Part shown: piece after piece, positions 3,669-60,849 of the stretch | Layout: each line of letters opens with the position of its first letter | Numbering within the stretch: position 1 is the stretch's first letter | NCBI GenBank assembly: GCA_032249135.1 | Contig: JAVVGL010000001.1 | Location: 126,504 to 190,503, forward strand | Length of the DNA: 64,000 bases | Direction: 5' to 3' | DNA from: Candidatus Calescibacterium sp. | GTDB taxonomy: Bacteria > Calescibacteriota > Calescibacteriia > Calescibacteriales > Calescibacteriaceae | Position numbers and translations under genes: made by a program | The notes under the pieces: model-generated | What the model was told of the DNA's origin: nothing | The model's database searches: none | Seen by the model: only the letters and a program-made list of their open reading frames with translations

Positions 3669-4724
3669 ATGATGGAAACTGAAATAAAATCTGAGGAAGA
3701 AATAAAAAAATTTAGAGAAATTTTCGGCAAAGTAGTTCAGGGGGAAAATTTAAATTTTGAAGAAGCAAGATTTTGCGCAGATTTAATAATTTCAGGGAAA
3801 GCACCTCAAAACCTTGTCGCAGGACTTTTAGTTGCTCTCAGAATGAAAGGAGAAACATCAGAAGAAATAGCAGGATTTGCATACGAGATGAGACAGAAAG
3901 CAGTAAAGCCTAAAATAGACGATGAAAATATAAAACCAATTGATACATGCGGAACAGGGGGGGATGGACTTCACACATTCAACGCTTCAACGGCATCAGC
4001 TATAATTTTAGCTGCAGAAGGAATAAAAGTAGCAAAACATGGAAACAGGGCAGTTTCTTCAAAACTTGGCTCAGCTGATATTCTGGAGAAATTAGGAGTG
4101 AAAATAAATGTTGAACCAGAAGAAGTTGAGAAAGAACTTAAAGAGAAAAATTTTGTCTTCCTTTTTGCTCCAAAATTCCATCCTGCTATGAAAAATGTAG
4201 CTCCAATAAGGAAAGAACTTGGAATAAGAACAATCTTCAATCTTTTAGGTCCAATCACTAATCCAGTTGGAGTGAAAAGACAGGTAATAGGAGTATTCTC
4301 CCCTGATTTTGCAGAAAAGATAGCACAAGCTTTATCTTTACTTGGAACTGAAAAAACTCTCGTGTTCTCAGGAGAAGCAGAAGAAGGATTTTTTATAGAC
4401 GAAATATCCCCATCAGGTCGGACATTCTTTTTCAAGTTAGAAAACGGTAAAATAGAAAAATTTGAGTTAGATGCAAGAGAAATTTTAGGGAAAAGACATA
4501 AAGTAGAAGAACTGAAACAATCAGAGAGCGAACCAGAAATAGAATTTTTAAATGTGTTAGAAGGAAAAGAGAGAGAGGCTTTACTTGACTTTGTAGCTTT
4601 GAATGTTGCGGCAGGATTTATAATTTGCGACAGAGTAAAAGATTTCAAGGAAGGTTATATTATGGCAAAAGACATTATAAAAAGCGGCAAGGCAAAAAAG
4701 TTTCTTCAAGAATATTTAGTTTAG
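3669..4724 (+). CDS. trpD: Anthranilate phosphoribosyltransferase (TrpD family)
   Basis: LVALRMKGETSEEIAGFAYEMR and the CGTGGDGLHTFNASTASAIILAAEGIKVAKHGNRAVSSKLGSADILE glycosyl-transferase family 3 signatures. No other trp genes adjacent, so a TrpD2/YbiB-like paralog is not excluded. Confidence 0.75.
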   Translation: MMETEIKSEEEIKKFREIFGKVVQGENLNFEEARFCADLIISGKAPQNLVAGLLVALRMKGETSEEIAGFAYEMRQKAVKPKIDDENIKPIDTCGTGGDGLHTFNASTASAIILAAEGIKVAKHGNRAVSSKLGSADILEKLGVKINVEPEEVEKELKEKNFVFLFAPKFHPAMKNVAPIRKELGIRTIFNLLGPITNPVGVKRQVIGVFSPDFAEKIAQALSLLGTEKTLVFSGEAEEGFFIDEISPSGRTFFFKLENGKIEKFELDAREILGKRHKVEELKQSESEPEIEFLNVLEGKEREALLDFVALNVAAGFIICDRVKDFKEGYIMAKDIIKSGKAKKFLQEYLV

Positions 4725-8778: not shown

Positions 8779-9510
8779 GTGATGCAGAAAATAAATGGCA
8801 AGAAAATAAGAATTCTTGAATTTGAGATAATGAGTGTTTTTGATGAGATGGGATTTGAAGAGGTAAGATTACCCATGGTATATGGAGGTGAGGTAAGAGA
8901 AGATTTTACTACCGAAATATCAAAAAGATTTGAAGAAGGAAAATTCTGTTATAGAGGCGGAGTTTTCAGAATATCTCCCTTCGGTAAACCTGAAGAGATG
9001 TACCAGTTAGGTTGTGAAATAATAAGACGAAAGGATTTGGGTTATGAGGATATTTCTCTTTGTGCAGAAACTCTAAATTCCGTTATTGCAAAAATTGAAA
9101 AAGCAGTCGGTAAAGAGATCAAAGTGGTTATAGGACACTATGGTCTTGTCAAAAAAATTTTTGGAGAGCTTGCTGAAATATTTTTTAAAAAGAACATAGC
9201 AAAAATAGATGAAGCAATAAGAGCCGGTAAGGTAGATGAAAAATATGCGTTAGCATTTTTTAAAGTGTTCTCAGACCAAAACGAGCTTTCGTCTCTTCTT
9301 GAACTACCCCAAGATATTTTGAATTTTTCAAGCAGAATAAGTTGCAAAAAACTTTTTAACCTCCCAGAATTGCCTGAAAAAGATTACTATACAGGGGTAA
9401 TCTTCGGAATTTTTTTAGAAAAAAAGAGAATAGGATTTGGGGGAAAATATTCTATATTGAAAAAAGAAGGAATCGGATTTTCAATAAATCTCCTTGATAT
9501 ATTCTCTTAA
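8779..9510 (+). CDS. Truncated class-II HisRS paralog (HisZ-like ATP-PRT regulatory subunit candidate)
   Basis: 243 aa. Region FRISPFGKPEEMYQLGCEII resembles HisRS/HisZ motif 2 (RYE..Q.GRYREF.Q.G.E). No anticodon-binding domain. Confidence 0.35.
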   Translation: MMQKINGKKIRILEFEIMSVFDEMGFEEVRLPMVYGGEVREDFTTEISKRFEEGKFCYRGGVFRISPFGKPEEMYQLGCEIIRRKDLGYEDISLCAETLNSVIAKIEKAVGKEIKVVIGHYGLVKKIFGELAEIFFKKNIAKIDEAIRAGKVDEKYALAFFKVFSDQNELSSLLELPQDILNFSSRISCKKLFNLPELPEKDYYTGVIFGIFLEKKRIGFGGKYSILKKEGIGFSINLLDIFS

Positions 9511-34700: not shown

Positions 34701-36459
34701 TATAAGAAATACATTGATTACAGTAAACTGGTCCTTCATAAGTGAGATCAGCATCTGTTACTCGTCTTACATATTTCCCAGATAAATTTTGACCGGTAAC
34801 ATCTGGAAATCCAACTCGGCTAACACTACTCGTAGGACAAGCCGTCATGTTGTCTGGTTCACGTTGGAATTGCTGTTCAGCTGTACATATACATCCACAC
34901 CAATCAGTACATGGGGGAAGCTCCGAGAAGATGAGGTCAGAAATTTCCACAAGACTTCCATCAAAAGCATCAATCCATACCCAAAACCTTCTTGCAATAG
35001 TAAGAATGAGAATTTTGTACGCCAAGTGTAAAATCCCATTTTTATCCCTTATTATTGTCAAGTAATATATTGGAGGAGCAAATTGTAATTCTTCCGGTTG
35101 CAGTGAAAATAATGAAAAAATACGAGACAAAACATCTCTTGGGCTTAACTTAGGTATTGTTGGAAAAGTTTCAGGAATAACATAATATTCTCCGAATATC
35201 GATCTAGGATTTCCTTCTGAATTAGTCCTCACAATAAGTTCGGTTTCCACTGGAATTCCTTTGAAAAACTGTTTAAACCTTATAAATGAAGCGTAACCTA
35301 AATTTTCAACTTCCTCTATTTTTAAATCTCCAAGATCTTCCTTGAAACCATAAACATCTTTAAGCTCGCTCAAAAAAGCTACTACTCCCTCTATTGTTCT
35401 TATGCCTTCATAAGATACTATTGTAAAATATGAAAAAACAAGGGCAGGGTTACCTGCCTTATCTTTTATCTTCACTCGAAGATTATGTGTATTTTCTGTA
35501 AGCTGTTCAGAAGGTGTAAAGTAAGCTCTGTTTTCCTCAACCCGAAATTTAGAAGTAATCTCCTCCCTATCCAAAAATATTCGGAAAGATTCTTTAAGAA
35601 TCCCTGATGTTTCATCCCAGAATTCAATCAAAAAATATGGAGTTTTACTTTGTATCAAAGCTCCGTATTGAGGTGATGAAACAACTATAAAAGGAGGCAC
35701 TGTATCTAATACAAGAGATGCTCTTTCTGTCCTCATCTCTCCTACCTTCTTTATCATTGTTCCACCATTTCCTAACTCATCCTCTCTTTCAACAAGAAGA
35801 TAAACAGTGTAATAGTAAGCTCCGTCTGGTTGAATTTTACCTTCAAAATCCTTCCCATTCCATATTGTTTTCATGTTTTTTCTTACATAGTGACAAGCTT
35901 TACCTTGCTCAATAGGTTTTAAGTCCCAAGTAACGCAATCAAAAGGAGGCAAGATTTCTTCTTTGAATGAGGAAAATTCATTTATTAGCTTCCCTTTTTC
36001 ATCATAGATAGAAAGCGACCATGTCAGAAAGTATCTTTTTACATCTCCTTTACCTTGTGATTGAAGTGCATCTGTATGCTTTACAAGAACTATAAAAGAA
36101 AACTCAACTTCATCAAGATGTCCATCACCATTTGGGGAGAAATAATCGGTTGATCTATCAAATTTTCTCAAACATACCTTTCCAGTTTCATCACAAACTG
36201 GGGATTGAAGTGGAGATGCAGTAATTGTTAGTGGTCTTGAAGGTGTGATTTTTACACCCTCAAAAAAATGGTTTGGAATAGGCTTTTTCTTCGTATACTT
36301 TCCTCCAAATACAGCAATGGGATTCCCAAGAACATCATTCCAGTCAGCTTTCCAATTACCTCCATTTTTTCTGTTAAATTCCTCAAAAGCTTTCATTTGA
36401 TCTTTTGTTGGTTCCCCAGTAGAAGCATTATTGGAAATCACTGCAATAGATATCAGCAA
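31792..36459 (-). CDS. Giant secreted zinc metalloprotease (thermolysin/fungalysin-like HExxH gluzincin) with PKD domain and C-terminal Cys-rich repeats
   Basis: HEYSHAHH followed ~25 aa later by LTEGIADYFA, spaced as the HExxH...E(A/G)xSD pattern of M4/M36 peptidases. WDFGDGTNPTIG PKD domain. At least 6 C-terminal repeats of type CNGxDDNCDG(x)n-DGDGY. The annotated start is TTG; the true start is probably an upstream ATG separated by a G8 tract. Confidence 0.75.
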   Translation of the reverse strand: MLISIAVISNNASTGEPTKDQMKAFEEFNRKNGGNWKADWNDVLGNPIAVFGGKYTKKKPIPNHFFEGVKITPSRPLTITASPLQSPVCDETGKVCLRKFDRSTDYFSPNGDGHLDEVEFSFIVLVKHTDALQSQGKGDVKRYFLTWSLSIYDEKGKLINEFSSFKEEILPPFDCVTWDLKPIEQGKACHYVRKNMKTIWNGKDFEGKIQPDGAYYYTVYLLVEREDELGNGGTMIKKVGEMRTERASLVLDTVPPFIVVSSPQYGALIQSKTPYFLIEFWDETSGILKESFRIFLDREEITSKFRVEENRAYFTPSEQLTENTHNLRVKIKDKAGNPALVFSYFTIVSYEGIRTIEGVVAFLSELKDVYGFKEDLGDLKIEEVENLGYASFIRFKQFFKGIPVETELIVRTNSEGNPRSIFGEYYVIPETFPTIPKLSPRDVLSRIFSLFSLQPEELQFAPPIYYLTIIRDKNGILHLAYKILILTIARRFWVWIDAFDGSLVEISDLIFSELPPCTDWCGCICTAEQQFQREPDNMTACPTSSVSRVGFPDVTGQNLSGKYVRRVTDADLTYEGPVYCNQCISYSQECTIGVFTLLGCIFSDPKDYCCSRCDELCPGRTCQPPPVINEPDRDFCYDPVMNPHEFEMASAYFWATMAGRFFDDASRFGDRATQTIIETLYVDYRRYTEPQRSWPPKNICAYGKCQNAGFSPGDPFLADVSYNITLCRFLASRTPFVVFHEYSHAHHCHVVKCEKERWGDLYRSLTEGIADYFADVMVNLYKRQIYAVSIRDWANILGANPNNYTFDNAINNRTFLRSDLINESHYNGGLWYSFLWRLRNRYGDIVDKLAECAIRSVGAGYSSIESFFNAFLDCATDTIENQDLMDEIRLGTIASAYLAEISRTPSIMLDRIEGSSMIGIISPIFYAFPGESANYDLIVTPNSNCPWQGDQLCGDDMFILSRTGVPQLRGLWNLSNLRAEKVRPSIYIKNRRFRRFIDHNTKTIRFFYTIRANGNTFSLDGTRLPFFDVSVPDNPPTANFTICYPDPDPSIGQICAVGEKILPFYFLKFPSGGVKVDFKGSFYEQDGNLIEECEWDFGDGTNPTIGSITEEALRVCETLGVCELGVCKETSHTYNSPGIYTVRYRVKDTTGLWSQYVEGQVQILVAFYKDADGDGYGDPNELVFAPSQPQGYVANDLDCDDSDSSVHPDAVEICNGKDDNCDGDITNEKDEDGDGYRICQGDCDDKDSAKFPGNPEVCDGKDNNCNGQIDEGVKVTYWYDDDGDGYGRTGDYLYCCESFWTFCVWWCIGHSPIEACPPGPPGYVTANNDCKDYNDQIHPGAPESCNGIDDNCDGVVPWNELDLDGDGWRICAGDCNDLISSIHPGAPEICNGIDDNCDGVIPSWEADNDGDGCRACVDCDDSNSSICPPTKCPSGYTLNTSTGKCEREPNDSDCDGCSGYIGKSCNERAKSRCWYSSEDKTCYYRINGGCNTWCSSINSCPSGWTEVSCDDDGIECGWTCPLDDPASRLCKRNPTCAGGSFNPSTGKCEAYPTCN

Positions 36460-36495
36460 AATAGAGGATAATATAACTCCGTAAAGATTTAGGCT

Positions 36496-36503
36496 CCCCC
36501 CCC
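36496..36503. repeat. Homopolymeric G8 tract (coding strand) inside the predicted signal-peptide region of the giant metalloprotease
   Basis: Minus-strand reading: aaaATGctaaaagatagcaaaaaggctGGGGGGGGagcctaaatc... With G8 the ATG frame stops after 12 codons. With G9 it reads through, in frame with ORF 31792-36459. Confidence 0.9.
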
Positions 36504-36668
36504 AGCCTTTTTGCTATCTTTTAGCATTTTTCTTTCCACTTTCATAATTTAAAATATAATCATTTTTTGTTTTGTTGTGTTGAAATTTGAGCAGTCAAAA
36601 ATTTAAAACTAACCTCTTTTTTTCTTTTTTGAATTTATTTGAAGTTTGCGTAAAGAGGTTTGTTTTTT

Positions 36669-45273: not shown

Positions 45274-45472
45274 AAGACCAAAATAATAAAATAAAATAAT
45301 AACCTAAACATTGTTGTTTAGATGATTTTGAAAAAATCCGGAAAAACTCTGAATTTTCCTAAAACCTCCAAAATCACAAATTCTTGACTTCTTTATCAAA
45401 AATGATTATTGTTTTTTATATAGAGAAAGAAAAATAAAAAAGGAGGAAACCAAAAAATGTCTGCGAATGTAA

Positions 45473-45490
45473 AGAGAGAGAGAGAGAGAG
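45473..45490. repeat. (AG)9 dinucleotide repeat between an RBS/ATG (45441-45459) and the RHS-toxin reading frame
   Basis: Direct reading: aggaggaaaccaaaaaATGtctgcgaatgtaaAGAGAGAGAGAGAGAGAGgttggacgg. The ATG frame hits TAG at 45508. With one extra AG unit it becomes in frame with the lipoprotein signal peptide and ORF 45653-51607. Confidence 0.9.
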
Positions 45491-45652
45491 GTTGGACGGA
45501 AGCTCAATAGAGGATACCTCACTTCCTTCTTCTTCATCTCTCCTTTCTCCCTTTTCTCATTTTTCTCTCTTTTATTTATTTTCAGTTGCCAAAAAGAATC
45601 AAAAAGCAAATTTTTCATATCAGAAAAAGGTGGAGTTGTTGAAAAAGATGAG

Positions 45653-48600
45653 TTGAAAATAGTTATTCCAGATGGTGCTTTGGATGAACCAAAAGAAATT
45701 GAAATCAAAAAAGTAAAAATGAAAGGTGCAGTAGGTCCCGCATTCCAAATCTCTCCCGACATCAAATTCAAAATCCCTGCCGAAATATCTATAAAATATG
45801 AAAATAATAGCAATATCAACATCAAAACACAACAAAAAATAAAAGAAGAAGAGTTTTTGAGAATTGCTTTCTATGATAATGATAACAAAACTTGGGTACC
45901 TTATGAAAGCTATTTTGATGGACAAAGAGTTTTTGCAAAAACAGACCACCTTTCAACATGGGCTATCGTGAGCGATATGCTCTTCCCTGACCCTTCATCC
46001 TCATTCTCATCTTCTTCTTCATATGAACCACCAGCGGGTGAAGTCCCGCCACTCAAAGTAGAAGAGTTCAGTGTGCAAAATTTTAGAATGTCATCAAGAT
46101 TTTCCCAAAAGAGTGAATCAGAACTCAGCTATGAGGAGTTTTCAATTGGGAATTTTGCATCAATTTTGAGGGTAGATGAAGAAGGGAATGTTTGGTTTGC
46201 AGAACATGGATTTTTGAACCAATACGCAACTTATATTGGAAAACTTGATACAAGAACTGGTCAGGTGAAACTCTGGTGGCTTCCAGCTGGAAATTGGGTA
46301 TCAGATATAGAGGTAAAAGGCAGATATGTTTGGATAGTTTTGAGGTTAGGTCCTGACCTTGTGAGGTTCAACATGGACACAGAGACTTTCAAGTATTTCA
46401 GGGTTCCATCATATATAGGAAGTTGGCCATATGAGATAGATTTTGATGGAGATGGGAACATATGGATGACGGTGACAGTAGGGAGAGCGGTAGCAAAGTT
46501 TGATGTGAGACAAGAAAGTTTTGTTTTTTATTTCAGGATACCAGTTGGTTGGTGGACAGCGGGAGTGAAAGTAGATGGTAACAAAGTATGGGTGACAGAG
46601 ACATATTCTTGCGTAGGACCGTTCATTTACTATGTGAATGAGGGGAGGTTGAAACAGCTTTACCCATCAGAAAGATTCTGTCCCGGGACATTTTACATTT
46701 TGGAGGGAAAAGCGGTAGGAGGTATGGGAGGAGATAGGTTAGGGATTTTGGATGAGGAAGGAGTATTAGATGTTCATGGGATAGGATTAGAGTTCAGTGG
46801 ATGGATGGGAGTAAGAAAGGAAGATAGGAGTGTGTGGGCAGGGGGAAATAACTATGTTTTTTGGTATTCGGTAGGAGAAAGGATGATAAGAGGTAGGGCA
46901 AATTTTGAGAGTGGAGCAGGAGTGATAGCGGTGGAGGTAGATTTTGAGGGGAATGCGTGGGCAATTTTGAGGAATGTAAAGAAGGTGGTGAAGATAAAGT
47001 CAAAACCTGTTGTTTTAGGATGTGATAAGACATGCGGAGGTGGAGATGAGCAAACACCACTTGTTCATATAGGGCATAATCTTCATGTAAATTTAGTCTC
47101 AGGTAATCTTTATGAGGTTTTCCCTCTATTTGAATTTGATCCCGATTCATTGGGTTTGCAAGTTAGCTTGATTTACAATAGTTTAGACGAAAGTTCATCG
47201 TCTTTAGGACCAAGGTGGAGAACAAATTGGGATATAAGAATTATTCCCAAAGGGGAAGATTTAATTCTTATTTGGGAGGATGGAAAAAGAATAATCTACA
47301 AAAAAGTTTCACAAGGTACCTGGATATCGGATGAAAGAACAGCTTTCAAATCTATTCCCAAAATAACTTTTGATGGTTCTAACTATATTCTCCACCAAAG
47401 GGGAGGAACAATAAGAAAATTTGATAACGAAGGTAAAATTATTCTTATTGAAGATAGGAGAGGAAACAGATGGAATTTCATATATGAAGGTAATTTGTTA
47501 GTTAAGATTGTTGATCCTGTTGGGAGAAACATAGAATTCAAATATTCTGACGGAAAATTAAAGTCAATCAGAGATCCCATAGGAAATGAATGGGAATTTA
47601 GTTATGATGAAAGCGGTAGACTTGCTGCAATAAAAGACCCTCTTGGTGGTACTACTCATTATATTTACGACAATATGAATAGAATAATTGAAAAGAAAGA
47701 TGCTCTTGGGGTTCCTTTGAGGATAGTTTACGATGAAAAAGGTAGAGTTGCTAAATCAATAGATATGAAAGGACACGAGCTTTCCATAGCTTATAGTGGC
47801 AATACTGTTATCTTAACCAGCAGAAGAGGAATTACCCAAAGAATTGAGGTTGATAGTAATCTTAATGTTATTAAATTGCAAAGCGATCAATTGGGTAATA
47901 CATATAGATTTGAGTACGATGAAAGGGGAAATCTTATAAAGCAAATTACTCCATCTGGATTAAAGTTTGAGTATAAGTATGATGATGAAGGAAACTTGGT
48001 ACAAATAAAAGAACCCACAGGTGCAACCAAAAGCTATAAGTATAACCAATTCGGAGATATTGTGGAATATAAAAACGAGGCAGGTGGTATTTGGAGATAT
48101 GAATATGATGAAAAAGGAAATCTTATAAAGGAAATAGATCCTGTTGGAAGGGAGAAAAAATTCTTCTACAGCACCTTGGGAAACTTAACTGCAACAATTG
48201 ATCAACTCGGAAGAGTGTGGAGATATTCGTACGATGAATATGGTCATCTCAAAGAAGAAATAGATCCACTAGGAAATGTTAGAAAATACAGCTATGACAT
48301 ACTTGGAAGATTGATTTCACAGAAAAGTCCAAGAGGATATACAGTAACCTACGAGTATGACGCTCTTGGTAGATTGATAAAATTCACCGATCAATTAGGA
48401 AACAGCTTTATTCGGGTTTATAATTCTCGGGGAGAAGTTATATATAAAGAAGATCCTCATGAAGGAAGGTTAAGACTTTACTACGATTACAATATGAACC
48501 TCACAGCTGTTGTCGATGAACTTGAAAGAATTGGATATATGAATTACGACCATGACGGGAATCTTATTGAGAAAATAGATTTTGGTGGGGGTAGATGGGT

Positions 48601-51600
48601 ATTCTTTTATAATGAATCAAATCTCCCAGTAAAAGCAGTAGATCCACAAGGCGGTGAATGGAATTTTGAATATAATGGAGATGGAAAAAGGATCAGGGAA
48701 ATTCTACCTTCCGGTGCCGAGACAAAGGTAATATTAGATGAAGCCGGAAGAATAGCGAGAGTTGAATTTTACGATGGAGTAATTCTTACAAGAACTTATA
48801 ACATAATGGGACTTATAGTTGAGGAATCTATAAATGGTTTAGCAACACGGTATGAATATGATCTTGCAGGTAATCCTGTAAAGGTTGTCAGCCAAGATGG
48901 CTCAATCATATTTTATGATTTTACTGGTAGAGTTACAGCTACTACTGATCCTGCTGGCAATGTAACCTTATATCAATATGACTTTTTGGGTAGGCTGATA
49001 AAAGAGGTGAAGCCAGATGGAGGAATTTATGAATACTCTTACGATTCCGAGGGTAATTTGATATCTAAAAAAGATCCTCTAGGTAACATTACAAGATATG
49101 AATATGATGCTTTGGGTCGAGTTATAAAAATCATAGACCCCAAAGGTGCTGAAACATCTTTTACATATGCCCCAAAAGGGAATGTCACTTCTATAACAGA
49201 TCCGTTGGGAAGAAAAACACTTTACTACTATGATGCTTTAGGAAATGTTACGGCGGTTGTTGATCCTTCTGAAAGGGTGACAAGATACATTTATGATTCA
49301 GCGGGAAATGTCATAGCAATTTTGGATCCTGACGGAAGGTGGGTTAGTTTCAAGTATGATACATTAGGGAGAGTTATAGAAAAAAATATCGGTGGAAGGA
49401 TTTGGAAATATAAATACGATATAGGTGGTAATCTCATATCCGTTATAGATCCTCTGGGGAATGAAACAAAATATACATACGATATTTACGGGAGAATAGT
49501 TTCAGAGGAGGATCCACTGGGCAGGGTTATACACTATAAGTATGATAAGTTCGGAAATCTTATAGAGAAAACATACCATAACAACATCAGAATATCCTAT
49601 AAGTACGATAAATTTGGGCGTGTTATAGAAAAGGTTTATCCTGACAACACAAAGGTAACTTATGAATATGATAGAGCTGGTAGGTTGGTGAGAGCAAAGA
49701 ATAAGGATATTGATATTTCAAAAACATATGATTCTATGGGTAGGATAAGAGAAAACACATTGAAACTACCTGGATTCCCATCTTTCACTATCTATTATGA
49801 ATATGATCGGCTTGGGAGGAGGACAAAAATGATAGATCCTTTTGGTGGGGTTTTCAAATATTACTATGATGAAACAGGAAACTTAATATCTCTTGTGAAC
49901 TCCGAGGGAAGGGAGTTTAGGTTTGAGTATAATCTTGCAGGTGAAAGAACGAAGGTAATATATCCTAACGGTATCGTTGCAGAATATTCATATAACGGAT
50001 GTAATGCTGGCTGCAAAAGTAGTATGAGAGTTTCTAATATAACAATAACCAAAGATGGAAAGGAATTACTGCTTTCTTTTTCTTATAAATATGATGGGAG
50101 CGGGAATGTTACAGAAGTTGAAGAACCAGATAAAATTATTTCCTATTTTTATGATGACGCTAATGAGCTTGTTGGAGTAGATGTAAAGCACAAAAGAAAG
50201 GAGGAAAAAGATTACTTGTTCAGATATTTTTATGATCTTTTTGGGAACAGGGTTGGTATGAAAATTGAATCAAAAGATGAAGGTCTCCCTTTTGACCCTA
50301 ACTTGCAAAGAACTCTGGATGGATTTCCAAAACTTAAACATCCGTTAGAAATTTTCTATCTATTTGACAATGCTAACCAAATCATTTATGAGGAGGCAAG
50401 AAGGAGGAACGGAAGTACATATTATAAAGTTTTTTATGAATTTGATCCTGTTGGGAACCTTTCAAGAAAATTAGTCCAGAATTTTGAAGGTGGCAAAGTT
50501 GAGGAATTTTTAACTGAGTACATATATAACTTTGAAAATAAACTTAAAAAGATTATCTACCAAAAAGAAGGGGAAAAGAAGGAAAACTCGTTTTTGGTTT
50601 CTGACATAGATTCAAAAGTTTATAGGAGGAGTGATAGTAAAGGGGAAGTCAAATACTTTATATATGATGGAGAGAATATTCTTGCAGAACTTGATGAGAA
50701 GGGGAATTTACTAGCAAGATATACTTTTGGTCTTGGGGTAGATGAGATTTTGGGGAAGATTGAATTTAAGAAAAAAAACGGAAAAGGGAAAAACGGGAAT
50801 GGAAAAGGCGAATCACAGAAACAGAAAAATGAATTTTTCTACCATGTGGATGGAACTTTGTCTGTAAGAGCTATAACAGATGAAAGAGGGAATTTGGTAG
50901 CAAAGTATGATTATGATCCGTTTGGACGACCATTAAAGGTATGGGGAGGGGAAGAGGCAAGGGAAAACGTATTTTTATTTGGAGGTAGGGAATATATTCC
51001 AGAGGCAGGGATTTATGATTTCAGAGCAAGGGCGATGGATCCAAGATATGGAAGATTCACGCAAAAGGATCCAGTATTGGAGGCAGGGGGAGAGGATGGT
51101 AAAAGAAGACTTATTGAAAGGGGAACATCAAAGTTGTTCTGGAATCCATATGTTTACGCTGATAACAATCCGCTCAGAAACAAAGATCCTTTTGGGCTCT
51201 ACATAATACTTTGTGATACAAGAGATAAGAGGGTATGGAGAGCAACAAGAATTGTTGATAAGAAAATATTCAAAGAAAAGTGCGTTGGAGGTGGATGGCC
51301 ATTTGGTTTGGGAAGTTGCCTCAGGAGAATTTCATATACTGTGACAATAAAATGTGCAAGAATGGATCGTTGTGGTAAAGCTTTTCATATCATAGATGTT
51401 TGGCTCAAACATGGTCTTGTCTTCAGTAAAAGTGCCGACGAAAAAACAGTAACGAACTGTTTACCATGCTTAAAATCAATGACAATAGAAGAGGTAATTG
51501 CATCAACTATATTACATGAAATGGTACATGTCTGCTGCAGGGGTGAGAATACTGCGGATAGGTGTGAGAGAAAATGTTTTTGTGGTTCGGACGAAAAATG

Positions 51601-51607
51601 TCCATAA
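45653..51607 (+). CDS. RHS/YD-repeat polymorphic toxin with C-terminal HExxH Cys-rich toxin domain (annotated from internal TTG; probable true start ATG 45457 via the repeat tract)
   Basis: >40 YD repeats (YDxxGNLxxxxDPxGxxxxYxYD). RHS-associated core ending at the DPxGL motif (RNKDPFGLY, ~nt 51185). ~140-aa variable C-terminal domain with ILHEMVHVCC. An in-frame lipoprotein signal peptide (...LLFIFSCQKES) lies upstream and lacks a canonical start in that frame. Confidence 0.85.
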   Translation: MKIVIPDGALDEPKEIEIKKVKMKGAVGPAFQISPDIKFKIPAEISIKYENNSNINIKTQQKIKEEEFLRIAFYDNDNKTWVPYESYFDGQRVFAKTDHLSTWAIVSDMLFPDPSSSFSSSSSYEPPAGEVPPLKVEEFSVQNFRMSSRFSQKSESELSYEEFSIGNFASILRVDEEGNVWFAEHGFLNQYATYIGKLDTRTGQVKLWWLPAGNWVSDIEVKGRYVWIVLRLGPDLVRFNMDTETFKYFRVPSYIGSWPYEIDFDGDGNIWMTVTVGRAVAKFDVRQESFVFYFRIPVGWWTAGVKVDGNKVWVTETYSCVGPFIYYVNEGRLKQLYPSERFCPGTFYILEGKAVGGMGGDRLGILDEEGVLDVHGIGLEFSGWMGVRKEDRSVWAGGNNYVFWYSVGERMIRGRANFESGAGVIAVEVDFEGNAWAILRNVKKVVKIKSKPVVLGCDKTCGGGDEQTPLVHIGHNLHVNLVSGNLYEVFPLFEFDPDSLGLQVSLIYNSLDESSSSLGPRWRTNWDIRIIPKGEDLILIWEDGKRIIYKKVSQGTWISDERTAFKSIPKITFDGSNYILHQRGGTIRKFDNEGKIILIEDRRGNRWNFIYEGNLLVKIVDPVGRNIEFKYSDGKLKSIRDPIGNEWEFSYDESGRLAAIKDPLGGTTHYIYDNMNRIIEKKDALGVPLRIVYDEKGRVAKSIDMKGHELSIAYSGNTVILTSRRGITQRIEVDSNLNVIKLQSDQLGNTYRFEYDERGNLIKQITPSGLKFEYKYDDEGNLVQIKEPTGATKSYKYNQFGDIVEYKNEAGGIWRYEYDEKGNLIKEIDPVGREKKFFYSTLGNLTATIDQLGRVWRYSYDEYGHLKEEIDPLGNVRKYSYDILGRLISQKSPRGYTVTYEYDALGRLIKFTDQLGNSFIRVYNSRGEVIYKEDPHEGRLRLYYDYNMNLTAVVDELERIGYMNYDHDGNLIEKIDFGGGRWVFFYNESNLPVKAVDPQGGEWNFEYNGDGKRIREILPSGAETKVILDEAGRIARVEFYDGVILTRTYNIMGLIVEESINGLATRYEYDLAGNPVKVVSQDGSIIFYDFTGRVTATTDPAGNVTLYQYDFLGRLIKEVKPDGGIYEYSYDSEGNLISKKDPLGNITRYEYDALGRVIKIIDPKGAETSFTYAPKGNVTSITDPLGRKTLYYYDALGNVTAVVDPSERVTRYIYDSAGNVIAILDPDGRWVSFKYDTLGRVIEKNIGGRIWKYKYDIGGNLISVIDPLGNETKYTYDIYGRIVSEEDPLGRVIHYKYDKFGNLIEKTYHNNIRISYKYDKFGRVIEKVYPDNTKVTYEYDRAGRLVRAKNKDIDISKTYDSMGRIRENTLKLPGFPSFTIYYEYDRLGRRTKMIDPFGGVFKYYYDETGNLISLVNSEGREFRFEYNLAGERTKVIYPNGIVAEYSYNGCNAGCKSSMRVSNITITKDGKELLLSFSYKYDGSGNVTEVEEPDKIISYFYDDANELVGVDVKHKRKEEKDYLFRYFYDLFGNRVGMKIESKDEGLPFDPNLQRTLDGFPKLKHPLEIFYLFDNANQIIYEEARRRNGSTYYKVFYEFDPVGNLSRKLVQNFEGGKVEEFLTEYIYNFENKLKKIIYQKEGEKKENSFLVSDIDSKVYRRSDSKGEVKYFIYDGENILAELDEKGNLLARYTFGLGVDEILGKIEFKKKNGKGKNGNGKGESQKQKNEFFYHVDGTLSVRAITDERGNLVAKYDYDPFGRPLKVWGGEEARENVFLFGGREYIPEAGIYDFRARAMDPRYGRFTQKDPVLEAGGEDGKRRLIERGTSKLFWNPYVYADNNPLRNKDPFGLYIILCDTRDKRVWRATRIVDKKIFKEKCVGGGWPFGLGSCLRRISYTVTIKCARMDRCGKAFHIIDVWLKHGLVFSKSADEKTVTNCLPCLKSMTIEEVIASTILHEMVHVCCRGENTADRCERKCFCGSDEKCP

Positions 51608-52747: not shown

Positions 52748-54079
52748 ATGCATTTGTATAATATAGTTGTACTAATACTAATTTTAATCTTTAATCTTTT
52801 AATCTTTACTCCATTTTGCTCCAATGATCAGGTCTTAAAGGAAGTTTTTTCTTGTCTTACTAGGTGGTATATTGAATGTACACATCCTCCATACGAGTTA
52901 TTACTCTGCAAAGATAAAATTCTTTTCTTAGATAGAAATGGAAGGCTTTGGAGCATTTCATCATCTGGTAATATAGATTGGGTAAAAAATACCGGCATTA
53001 AGAGAAATTTTTATGATGCTCTGCTAGCATGTGATGACTTTTCCATATATGTGGTCTCCAAAAACCAAATCATATCAGTTGATTTTGAAGGAAATATCAC
53101 AAAAAGATATAACCTTGATTTCAAAGAAGAGTTTCATTTCAATGATGCTGTATTTATTGGCAAGAAACTAATTTTAATCTCACGGAGAAAAATTCTTGCT
53201 TTTGATATTGATAAATGGAAAATGATATGGGTAAAAGATGCTACTGAAAACTCTTTTCAGGATTTCACCTCTATTTCAGAAAATCAAGCTATTTTCTCTT
53301 CTAATTCAAACATATATAAGATAGACTTGCAAACAGGTGATGTAATCAACAAAATCTCATTAGAGGATTACTTCAAAGAAGAAAGATGTATTTTTCATAT
53401 GCCTGTGGTGAATAAAGATTATGGTTATGTAGATGGTGTCTATTACTATCATGAAAACAAGTATCCTTCGCCACTATCTTATATATGGTTAAGATGTTAT
53501 TATTACATTGATGGTAAAAGAAAAGAAAAGATTTTAGGTATTGAACCTGAAAATTTCAATATAGTCTTTCCTCCAACTGAAATTCCTAAATTCGGTCAGG
53601 TAGTTGGGATTTTTCAAGATAAATTGATTCTCGCAGATAATTTTCAAAATGGCAGCACCATCACTCTATACGCTTTGAGCGTTACCGGAGAAATTTTGTG
53701 GGAAAGAAAAATAGAAGGAATTGAATTTTTTGGTACAGTTCAACCTGGAGATGTTACAATTTATATATCAAAAGGTTACAAGACAATATTTTTAGTTTAT
53801 CCCTTTACCGGGGAAATTTTACATAAGACCACTGATATAAATATCAATTTTCATACTTTTACAAGAAAAGGAGCAGATGAAATAGGTGAGCTTTTAGATA
53901 TAAAGAATGCAAAGTTGTATCTTTTATGGATTTACGGAGATGCATATGAGGAGAGAAAAGAAAGGAAAGGACTTTTGAAATTAGATTTGAAAGAAGGGAA
54001 AATGGAATGGAATACTGAGATAAACTTTACCGAACCAGAGTGTCATAGAGATAAGATGCCAATAAGGTGGTATAGATAA
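52748..54079 (+). CDS. Lipoprotein, paralog B of the tandem pair downstream of the RHS toxin
   Basis: Signal peptide MHLYNIVVLILILIFNLLIFTPFCSND. Shares sequence blocks along its length with the preceding ORF. Beta-rich repeat appearance. Confidence 0.55.
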   Translation: MHLYNIVVLILILIFNLLIFTPFCSNDQVLKEVFSCLTRWYIECTHPPYELLLCKDKILFLDRNGRLWSISSSGNIDWVKNTGIKRNFYDALLACDDFSIYVVSKNQIISVDFEGNITKRYNLDFKEEFHFNDAVFIGKKLILISRRKILAFDIDKWKMIWVKDATENSFQDFTSISENQAIFSSNSNIYKIDLQTGDVINKISLEDYFKEERCIFHMPVVNKDYGYVDGVYYYHENKYPSPLSYIWLRCYYYIDGKRKEKILGIEPENFNIVFPPTEIPKFGQVVGIFQDKLILADNFQNGSTITLYALSVTGEILWERKIEGIEFFGTVQPGDVTIYISKGYKTIFLVYPFTGEILHKTTDININFHTFTRKGADEIGELLDIKNAKLYLLWIYGDAYEERKERKGLLKLDLKEGKMEWNTEINFTEPECHRDKMPIRWYR

Positions 54080-60771: not shown

Positions 60772-60849
60772 ATTGAATTAATTAATTAATTAATTAATAA
60801 AATAAAAATCCAGAAAATTTTTCTTGAATTTTTTATGCTTTTGAAATTC

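Follow-up and report, generated by a model that had tools for sequence, protein, structure and literature searches.

The 64-kb stretch of Candidatus Calescibacterium DNA analyzed here (contig JAVVGL010000001.1; called the window below, with positions counted from its first base) contains a gene for a giant RHS protein in which nine perfect AG units lie between the start codon, with its ribosome binding site (RBS), and most of a lipoprotein-type signal peptide. With nine units, the start codon is out of frame with both the signal peptide and the RHS body. Contigs that carry the same arrangement differ in the number of AG units within nearly constant flanks, and the long open reading frame (ORF) that is left without its start is held under purifying selection. 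We consider it likely that the tract is a slipped-strand contingency locus within the 5' coding region of a Calescibacterium RHS lipoprotein toxin gene.

Organization of the start of the gene

The elements at the 5' end of the RHS gene are as follows.

45372 to 45412, plus strand: cassette start with a candidate promoter from a promoter scan (-35 TTGACT at 45384-45389, 17-nt spacer, -10 TATTGT at 45407-45412)
45440 to 45446, plus strand: Shine-Dalgarno sequence AAGGAGG (AGGAGG at 45441-45446), 10 nt 5' of ATG 45457
45457 to 45472, plus strand: start codon (ATG, 45457-45459) and leader, ATG TCT GCG AAT GTA A, i.e., MSANV and the first A of a Lys codon
45473 to 45490, plus strand: perfect (AG)9 tract, the proposed hypermutable element, 16 nt past ATG 45457 and upstream of the signal-peptide h-region
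45491 to 45589, plus strand: rest of the lipoprotein-type signal peptide, with VGRKLNRGY, an F-rich h-region, and the lipobox IFSC at 45578-45589 (Cys codon 45587-45589)
45508 to 45510, plus strand: TAG ending the 17-aa peptide from ATG 45457 when the number of AG units (n) is 9, the OFF state
45653 to 45655, plus strand: internal TTG, taken by the JGI, ENA, and NCBI gene callers as the start of a 1984-aa product

Read from ATG 45457, the sequence encodes MSANVKRERERGWTEAQ and then terminates at TAG 45508-45510. The signal-peptide frame at n = 9 is shut upstream by TAA 45470-45472, is open from 45473, and reads VGRKLNRGYLTSFFFISPFSLFSFFSLLFIFSCQKESK...; its first ATG, GTG, or TTG codon is TTG 45653, and it then remains open to the stop codon at 51605-51607. 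The third frame is open for 54 codons (45492-45656), and its TGA (45654-45656) overlaps TTG 45653 in the tetranucleotide TTGA. This layout had been proposed in an earlier note on the same DNA. Re-reading of the sequence confirmed AGGAGG at 45441-45446, ATG 45457, the (AG)9 tract, and TAG 45508. It likewise confirmed a lipoprotein-type signal peptide in the next frame, which stays open into the RHS ORF and up to the end of the latter at 51607, and the public annotations at JGI, ENA, and NCBI do place the RHS start at internal TTG 45653, for a product of 1984 aa.

The tract was rebuilt in silico with 6 to 12 units. Fusion of ATG, signal peptide, and RHS body was obtained at 7 units (2048 aa) and 10 units (2050 aa) only, in agreement with the earlier claim that one additional unit, or two fewer, would join them; 6, 8, 9, 11, and 12 units gave peptides of 15 to 67 aa. 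When in frame, the tract codes for alternating Arg and Glu within the n-region of the signal peptide, so that in-frame changes of length leave the net charge of the n-region unaltered. No other dinucleotide repeat in the 64 kb exceeds 5 units, and none of 100 shuffles that preserved the dinucleotide composition of the window contained (AG)≥7. The AAGGAGG 7-mer, at a similar spacing, also precedes dnaK (~10 nt) and other genes of the window.

Contigs with other numbers of AG units

Contigs bearing this segment, which we refer to as the cassette, were collected by a scan of JGI metagenomes for the two tract flanks with a variable gap between them and by look-ups of protein-cluster members; L001, L002, and others were retrieved via the neighboring methyltransferase gene. 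The resulting set comprises 15 contigs, the window among them, and the flank alignment comprises 13 sequences. L001 is JGI 3300045867, L002 is ENA ERZ27247211, and L022, which is discussed below, is JGI 3300003598. The comparisons concern assembled metagenomic contigs. Upstream of the cassette, the flanks represent at least five unrelated contexts:

Context A (window): methyltransferase / RNase PH
Context B: hemC / metallo-beta-lactamase
Contexts C, D, and E: three more upstream contexts

The lengths of the tract in the 15 contigs are these:

5 AG units: L010, L014
6 AG units: L011, L016/L025, L026
8 AG units: L013, L027
9 AG units: window, L001, L002
9 AG units with one G absent after the tract, which restores the frame: L003
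10 AG units: L015, L017
11 AG units: L012
12 AG units: L009

The seven lengths (5, 6, 8, 9, 10, 11, and 12) span all three reading phases. The flanks are essentially unchanged, with the leader ATGTCTGCGAATGTAA on one side and GGTTGGACGGAAGCTCA on the other, and ~60 nt per side are nearly constant. In the alignment, the promoter block (45372-45412, recognized as a promoter by its match to the consensus), the RBS, the leader, and the first 20 nt 3' of the tract show little change; positions 45457-45472 are the same in 13 of 13 sequences except for one N in L003. The tract is the only element that varies in length, apart from in-frame indels in the signal peptide. Differences are seen among close relatives: at locus E, L012 has 11 units and L017 has 10, with 5 substitutions in 4778 aligned bases, and at locus B there are alleles of 12 and 8 units with a flank identity of 96%. 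Tracts of 5 and 6 units are constant where contigs are nearly identical, which fits a dependence of slippage on length. The heterogeneity of unit number between strains or samples that the earlier note had called for is therefore present, from 5 to 12 units.

The same note held that a simple consensus error would undo its reading. The window differs from L001 and L002 at 26 and 30 of 6681 positions, respectively, and all three have an identical (AG)9; three independent assemblies that differ to this extent and share the tract rule out such an error. All full-length members of the protein cluster are 1984 aa long, which indicates that every gene caller met the same out-of-frame layout. More generally, it is scarcely credible that the lengths reflect a sequencing or assembly artefact at a low-complexity tract. 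Dinucleotide runs are prone to stutter, there is an N beside the tract in L003, and the Logan contigs L004 and L005 end within the tract, but the three assemblies with (AG)9 come from different centers, the differences of up to 7 units far exceed stutter, and the Logan ends have an exact explanation as breaks in the assembly graph. The Logan contigs L004 to L007, from four sequencing runs, end at 45481 or 45403, i.e., exactly 30 nt beyond the last position at which the window cassette differs from the C/D-type or the B-type cassette; the first 31-mers in common with the other copies start at 45452 (C/D types) and 45374 (B type), which predicts ends at 45481 and 45403. The ends in L004 and L005 had also been considered as a sign of heterogeneity within a sample, and this was ruled out, since they are 31-mer repeat breaks. 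The match to de Bruijn repeat breaks indicates instead that several copies of the cassette co-occur in one sample.

The spread of the alleles over all three phases also bears on programmed recoding, in which +1 ribosomal frameshifting or transcriptional slippage on the AG run would yield a full-length protein from (AG)9. The AG/GAGG-rich tract resembles a Shine-Dalgarno-like stimulator and three assemblies have the identical out-of-frame genotype, yet a programmed frameshift requires a fixed relation between the frames, and 45473-45510 contains neither a slippery codon nor a stop context like that of prfB. Slippage of RNA polymerase is an established phenomenon on long runs of A or T but not on dinucleotide repeats. 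We regard recoding as very improbable. A conserved out-of-frame phase, hinted at by the window (9 units) and L009 (12 units), which share a phase, was considered as a pointer to recoding and was ruled out by the alleles of 5, 6, 8, 10, and 11 units.

Signal peptide and annotated start

The signal peptide was judged by a PROSITE-type lipobox rule, [LIVMFWSTAG](2)-[LIVMFYSTAGCQ]-[AGS]-C, with 6 uncharged residues before it and K or R near the N-terminus. The segment SFFSLLFIFSC fits this pattern; the n-region includes K6 and R7 and carries a net charge of +4. The h-region is F-rich, with a mean Kyte-Doolittle hydrophobicity of 1.84, and another lipoprotein candidate in the window is similar. Cassette types differ in the signal peptide by indels whose lengths are divisible by three, and they retain the (L/F)IFSC box; in these respects the 54 codons 5' of TTG 45653 behave like coding DNA. 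An exhaustive HMMER search with the signal peptide and the N-terminal domain that follows it (the N-domain) recovered three distant relatives, P0048, P0051, and P0060, in which the homologous N-domain comes directly after a canonical lipoprotein signal (...LLFGC, ...SMGAC, and ...LFLCSC, respectively). The lipobox pattern, the in-frame indels, and the signals of the distant homologues all support the lipoprotein signal that the earlier note had read here.

These same data argue against taking the TTG-initiated product at face value. It could be supposed that the signal-less protein from TTG 45653 is the real one, and that everything before it, from the ATG through the tract and the upstream ORF, serves as a leader or uORF that tunes its translation, with possible coupling through TTGA at n mod 3 = 2. 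All gene callers chose TTG 45653, and the TGA (45654-45656) of the ORF read from the ATG in the third frame overlaps this codon, an arrangement that could couple translation into the RHS frame. However, the codons 5' of the TTG encode a conserved lipoprotein signal in which only in-frame indels occur, the homologues have lipoprotein signals too, and the Shine-Dalgarno match at the TTG is poor and distant, consisting of just GGAG at 17 nt. The openness of the third frame can be attributed to the pyrimidine-only DNA of the signal peptide, and the peptide of 61 to 67 aa that ends on the annotated RHS start at n mod 3 = 2 is probably a by-product of that composition. A leader of this kind thus seems improbable.

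Coding constraint and the proposed switch

Over the 2038 codons of the out-of-frame ORF, the window and L009 have a synonymous divergence (dS) of 0.084 and a ratio of nonsynonymous to synonymous divergence (dN/dS) of 0.187. When the same 176 substitutions were placed at random in a neutral simulation, ~8 stop codons resulted, and the probability of no stop was ~3e-4 (0.03% of trials). The OFF-phase RHS ORF is held under purifying selection. Among cassette types, the dN/dS of the N-domain is 0.11 to 0.19; pairs from locus E have 1 to 3 substitutions in 3.4 kb, too few for a dN/dS on the signal-less product.

In the mechanism that we infer, which takes in slippage, reversibility within the population, export, lipidation, and an adaptive role in bet-hedging, slipped-strand mispairing during replication would add or remove AG units. 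At n mod 3 = 1 (n = 7, 10, or 13), ATG 45457, with its strong AAGGAGG RBS, would share a reading frame with the signal peptide and the body of the RHS gene, and the gene would be ON; the product could then undergo export and lipidation at the cysteine of IFSC and would display the HExxH toxin domain at its C-terminus. At n mod 3 = 0, as in the window with n = 9, translation would end after 15 to 19 codons, and at n mod 3 = 2 it would end after 61 to 67 codons. In both OFF phases, the 2038-codon RHS frame would be without a usable start.

Several observations weigh against such a switch. No intact allele with 7, 10, or 13 units is present among the contigs: (AG)10 is restricted to locus E, which also has a nonsense codon and a mid-gene frameshift, and the sole intact in-frame allele, in L003, arises by loss of a single G at the border of the tract; the assembly is an old one, and an N is present at a distance of one unit. 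Assembly of a multicopy cassette could blur the assignment of tract length to locus, although seven lengths would still need seven distinct read populations. The n-region of the RHS signal peptide is unusually long, and the lipobox Cys of the ON form is at residue 43 ((AG)7) or 45 ((AG)10), outside the range of 15 to 35 given in PROSITE PS51257. Other RHS copies, at locus D and in L030, are dead by ordinary nonsense mutations and loss of function is common in the family, and the OFF phases could belong to the same trend.

Carried further, the last point becomes an explanation of its own, in which the tract is simply prone to slippage and the OFF phases represent the loss of costly or redundant RHS copies, with no selected reversible switch. 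Members of the family have indeed died in other ways. Locus D has TGG changed to TGA in the N-domain (L025, ~9180-9190); locus E (L012, L015, and L017) has a TAG immediately 3' of the lipobox Cys codon and is also frameshifted at a T6 run, a site through which the E-like RHS body of the NCBI contig L026 reads; and L030, a distant homologue, is split by TAG at a Trp position (2433-2438). L028/L029, beside ftsK, contain a decayed cassette remnant with an internal deletion, in which the tract is now A(AG)3AAGGG. In addition, among the 10 contigs whose loci seem intact, 9 are out of frame. However, phase alone would put about two-thirds of alleles in an OFF state, and 1 ON among ~7 independent alleles does not fall significantly short of the one-third expectation (binomial P ~0.26). 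At loci A and B, the out-of-frame ORFs are open for 2036 to 2038 codons with a dN/dS of 0.19, an openness that the neutral simulation rarely reproduces, and the tracts are perfectly pure in 15 of the 15 cassette contigs and decayed solely in the old remnant. We therefore hold decay without a selected switch to be unlikely. The loss of the tract in the L028/L029 remnant suggests that long pure tracts persist only in copies that are live or were so recently.

Copies of the cassette

The cassette is ~1.7 kb long (45359-47058) and, in L009 to L017 and L025 to L027, includes the promoter, RBS, ATG, (AG)n, signal peptide, and N-domain, the last of which is located as follows.

45590 to 47058, plus strand: conserved N-domain of the cassette, ~520 aa, with a weak Vgb-lyase-like beta-propeller match; common to RHS genes with differing bodies

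The Pfam Vgb_lyase match has an E value of 9e-4, below the cut-off for the family. Homology to other RHS loci begins abruptly at 45359-45374, ~90 nt 5' of the ATG, and homology to cassette types C and E stops at 47058, just 5' of DUF6531; 3' of this position the RHS bodies are different. In L026 (n = 6), an upstream flank like that of type C is combined with a body similar in sequence to type E.

Since a common cassette heads RHS genes in at least five contexts, the population probably carries several RHS toxins that switch independently. A broader possibility, which we put forward tentatively and regard as doubtful in its full form, is that a portable switch cassette is placed before different RHS bodies in one genome, so that cells would display random subsets of them. 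This could provide combinatorial bet-hedging in warfare between strains in streamer biofilms at ~80 °C, with the TGA/TTG coupling at n mod 3 = 2 as a third state that would give a signal-less intracellular RHS protein.

A second tract in a sister gene

The earlier note had likened the (AG)9 gene to a second giant exported protein of the same genome, with a G8 tract at its 5' end.

36457 to 36545, minus strand: sister locus, with ATG 36545, G8 at 36503-36496 (C8 at 36496-36503 on the plus strand), and TTG 36459 within the signal peptide

The sister gene encodes a 1555-aa MopE/PKD protein, and its G8 tract lies between ATG 36545 and the signal peptide, which is out of frame with the ATG. The likeness was borne out, and the sister tract is polymorphic as well: G8 is found in L020, L021, and L023, and G9 is found in L022, where it fuses ATG 36545 to the signal peptide and the allele reads MKVERKMLKDSKKAGGGSLNLYGVILSSILLISIAVISNNAS in a single frame. 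The note had gone on to argue for programmed contingency loci rather than two errors. A consensus error is excluded for the AG tract, and both tracts are polymorphic; that they are programmed is something we infer from the purity of the tract, its conservation, and the maintenance of the ORF.

The 12-mer AAAAATGATTAT occurs just twice in the window, at 45398-45409 (plus strand), in the promoter block of the RHS cassette, and at 36567-36556 (minus strand), 10 nt 5' of the ATG of the G8 locus. The expected number of copies is 0.14, and two copies were reached in 1 of 100 shuffles. The 12-mer may be a promoter or operator element common to the two putatively switchable genes.

Among the other repeats of the window, G7 (3957-3963) and (AG)5 (4568-4577) are in frame within a trpD-like housekeeping gene (Pfam Glycos_transf_3, E 8e-81), and (AATT)5 (60776-60795) is in the gap between two convergent ORFs.

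The RHS protein and its neighbors

Downstream of the cassette, the gene and the two ORFs that follow it are arranged as follows.

47084 to 51199, plus strand: RHS body, with DUF6531 (47084-47299), RHS/YD repeats, and the core-end sequence PLRNKDPFGL (51170-51199)
51200 to 51607, plus strand: variable C-terminal, putative toxin domain, 135 aa, Cys-rich, with HEMVH at 51515-51529, then the stop codon
51574 to 52731 and 52748 to 54079, plus strand: downstream ORF pair; hydrophobic N-termini, weak matches to beta-propellers

Pfam RHS_repeat matched in 17 stretches (E 3.8e-155) and DUF6531 matched with an E value of 4.5e-11. The sequence PLRNKDPFGL, at residues 1894-1903, is a PxxxxDPxGL core-end motif. 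No domain of the PAAR or VgrG type was found in the RHS protein. The C-terminal domain gave no Pfam match and no PDB sequence match; from its HEMVH motif, our guess would be a metallopeptidase toxin. A similar tail, HEMVHVC..., ends P0003, a 39%-identical homologue. The two downstream ORFs were assigned to no family and may be immunity or accessory genes.

Host and searches in other collections

The 1984-aa product started at TTG falls into a 90%-identity cluster with NCBI MDT7906571.1 ('MAG: Candidatus Calescibacterium sp.'), and the G+C content of the window is 34.5%. Calescibacterium (Calescamantes) is an uncultured aerobic heterotroph of the 80 to 84 °C streamers of Octopus Spring, Yellowstone, with a G+C content of ~34 to 35% (PMC4791363, PMC11696919). 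Scans of GTDB representative genomes with the tract-flank DNA pattern and with the N-domain protein recovered no Calescibacterium locus. A protein word-index search with an approximate, reconstructed N-terminus of 150 aa gave no match and also missed its own cluster, the method having little sensitivity when the query is short. No contigs were obtained for P0036 and P0037.

Comparison with known systems

Contingency loci built on simple sequence repeats (SSRs) are textbook knowledge for host-adapted pathogens such as Neisseria, Haemophilus, Campylobacter, and Helicobacter. The closest likeness to the (AG)n tract is Helicobacter pylori oipA, in which CT repeats in the signal-peptide coding region, numbering 5 to 11 units between strains, set the gene ON or OFF by slipped-strand mispairing (PMC10564699). 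In oipA, as in hopZ, sabA, and sabB, the start codon is separated from the end of the signal-peptide sequence of an exported protein by a dinucleotide repeat, and the CT unit corresponds to AG on the complementary strand. There are several differences. Calescibacterium is an uncultured, free-living hot-spring bacterium of ~80 °C and not a host-adapted pathogen. Whereas oipA encodes a beta-barrel adhesin, the Calescibacterium gene would encode a 2050-aa RHS polymorphic toxin with a lipoprotein signal. The repeat in Calescibacterium is in the charged n-region, where it codes for Arg-Glu, and the proposed switch is part of a cassette common to several RHS genes.

The opa genes of Neisseria, reportedly described by Stern et al. 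in 1986 as having CTCTT pentamer repeats in the leader-peptide coding region, are a second parallel: they form a multigene family in which each copy has its own repeat in the signal segment, so that the copies switch independently. The unit here is a dinucleotide and not a pentamer, the opa products are small adhesins, and the opa copies are in one genome, whereas those described here were seen across contigs.

The sister G8/G9 tract at 36496-36503, near the 5' end of the coding sequence for a surface or exported protein, resembles instead the poly-G/C contingency loci of Campylobacter jejuni and H. pylori (PMC6321876, PMC8437040). The host in this case is a thermophile with 34.5% G+C, and this likeness concerns the sister tract, not the AG tract.

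As a protein, the RHS product shares with the RHS/YD polymorphic toxins, i.e., the WapA-like Sec-dependent proteins and the RHS effectors of type VI secretion systems, the RHS repeats, DUF6531, the PxxxxDPxGL motif, a short variable C-terminus, and small downstream ORFs. It differs from them in its N-terminus, which consists of a lipoprotein signal and a beta-propeller-like domain.

A limited full-text search of the literature found no report of SSR phase variation of an RHS gene, and a limited search likewise found none of SSR contingency loci in hyperthermophiles. As a switch of the H. pylori oipA type it would be of a known kind, the new features being the phylum of the host and the class of the gene. 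One lesson concerns annotation: the public calls (JGI, ENA, and NCBI MDT7906571.1) begin at an internal TTG and thereby lose the export signal. The conserved flanks also supply an assay, since the pattern TCTGCGAATGTA-N-TTGGACGGAAGCTC can read the switch state directly from metagenomic reads. If the proposed switch is real, giant surface or toxin proteins would be turned ON and OFF stochastically in a deep-branching, uncultured lineage living at ~80 °C, and slipped-strand bet-hedging would reach past immune evasion to competition between bacteria in extreme free-living communities.

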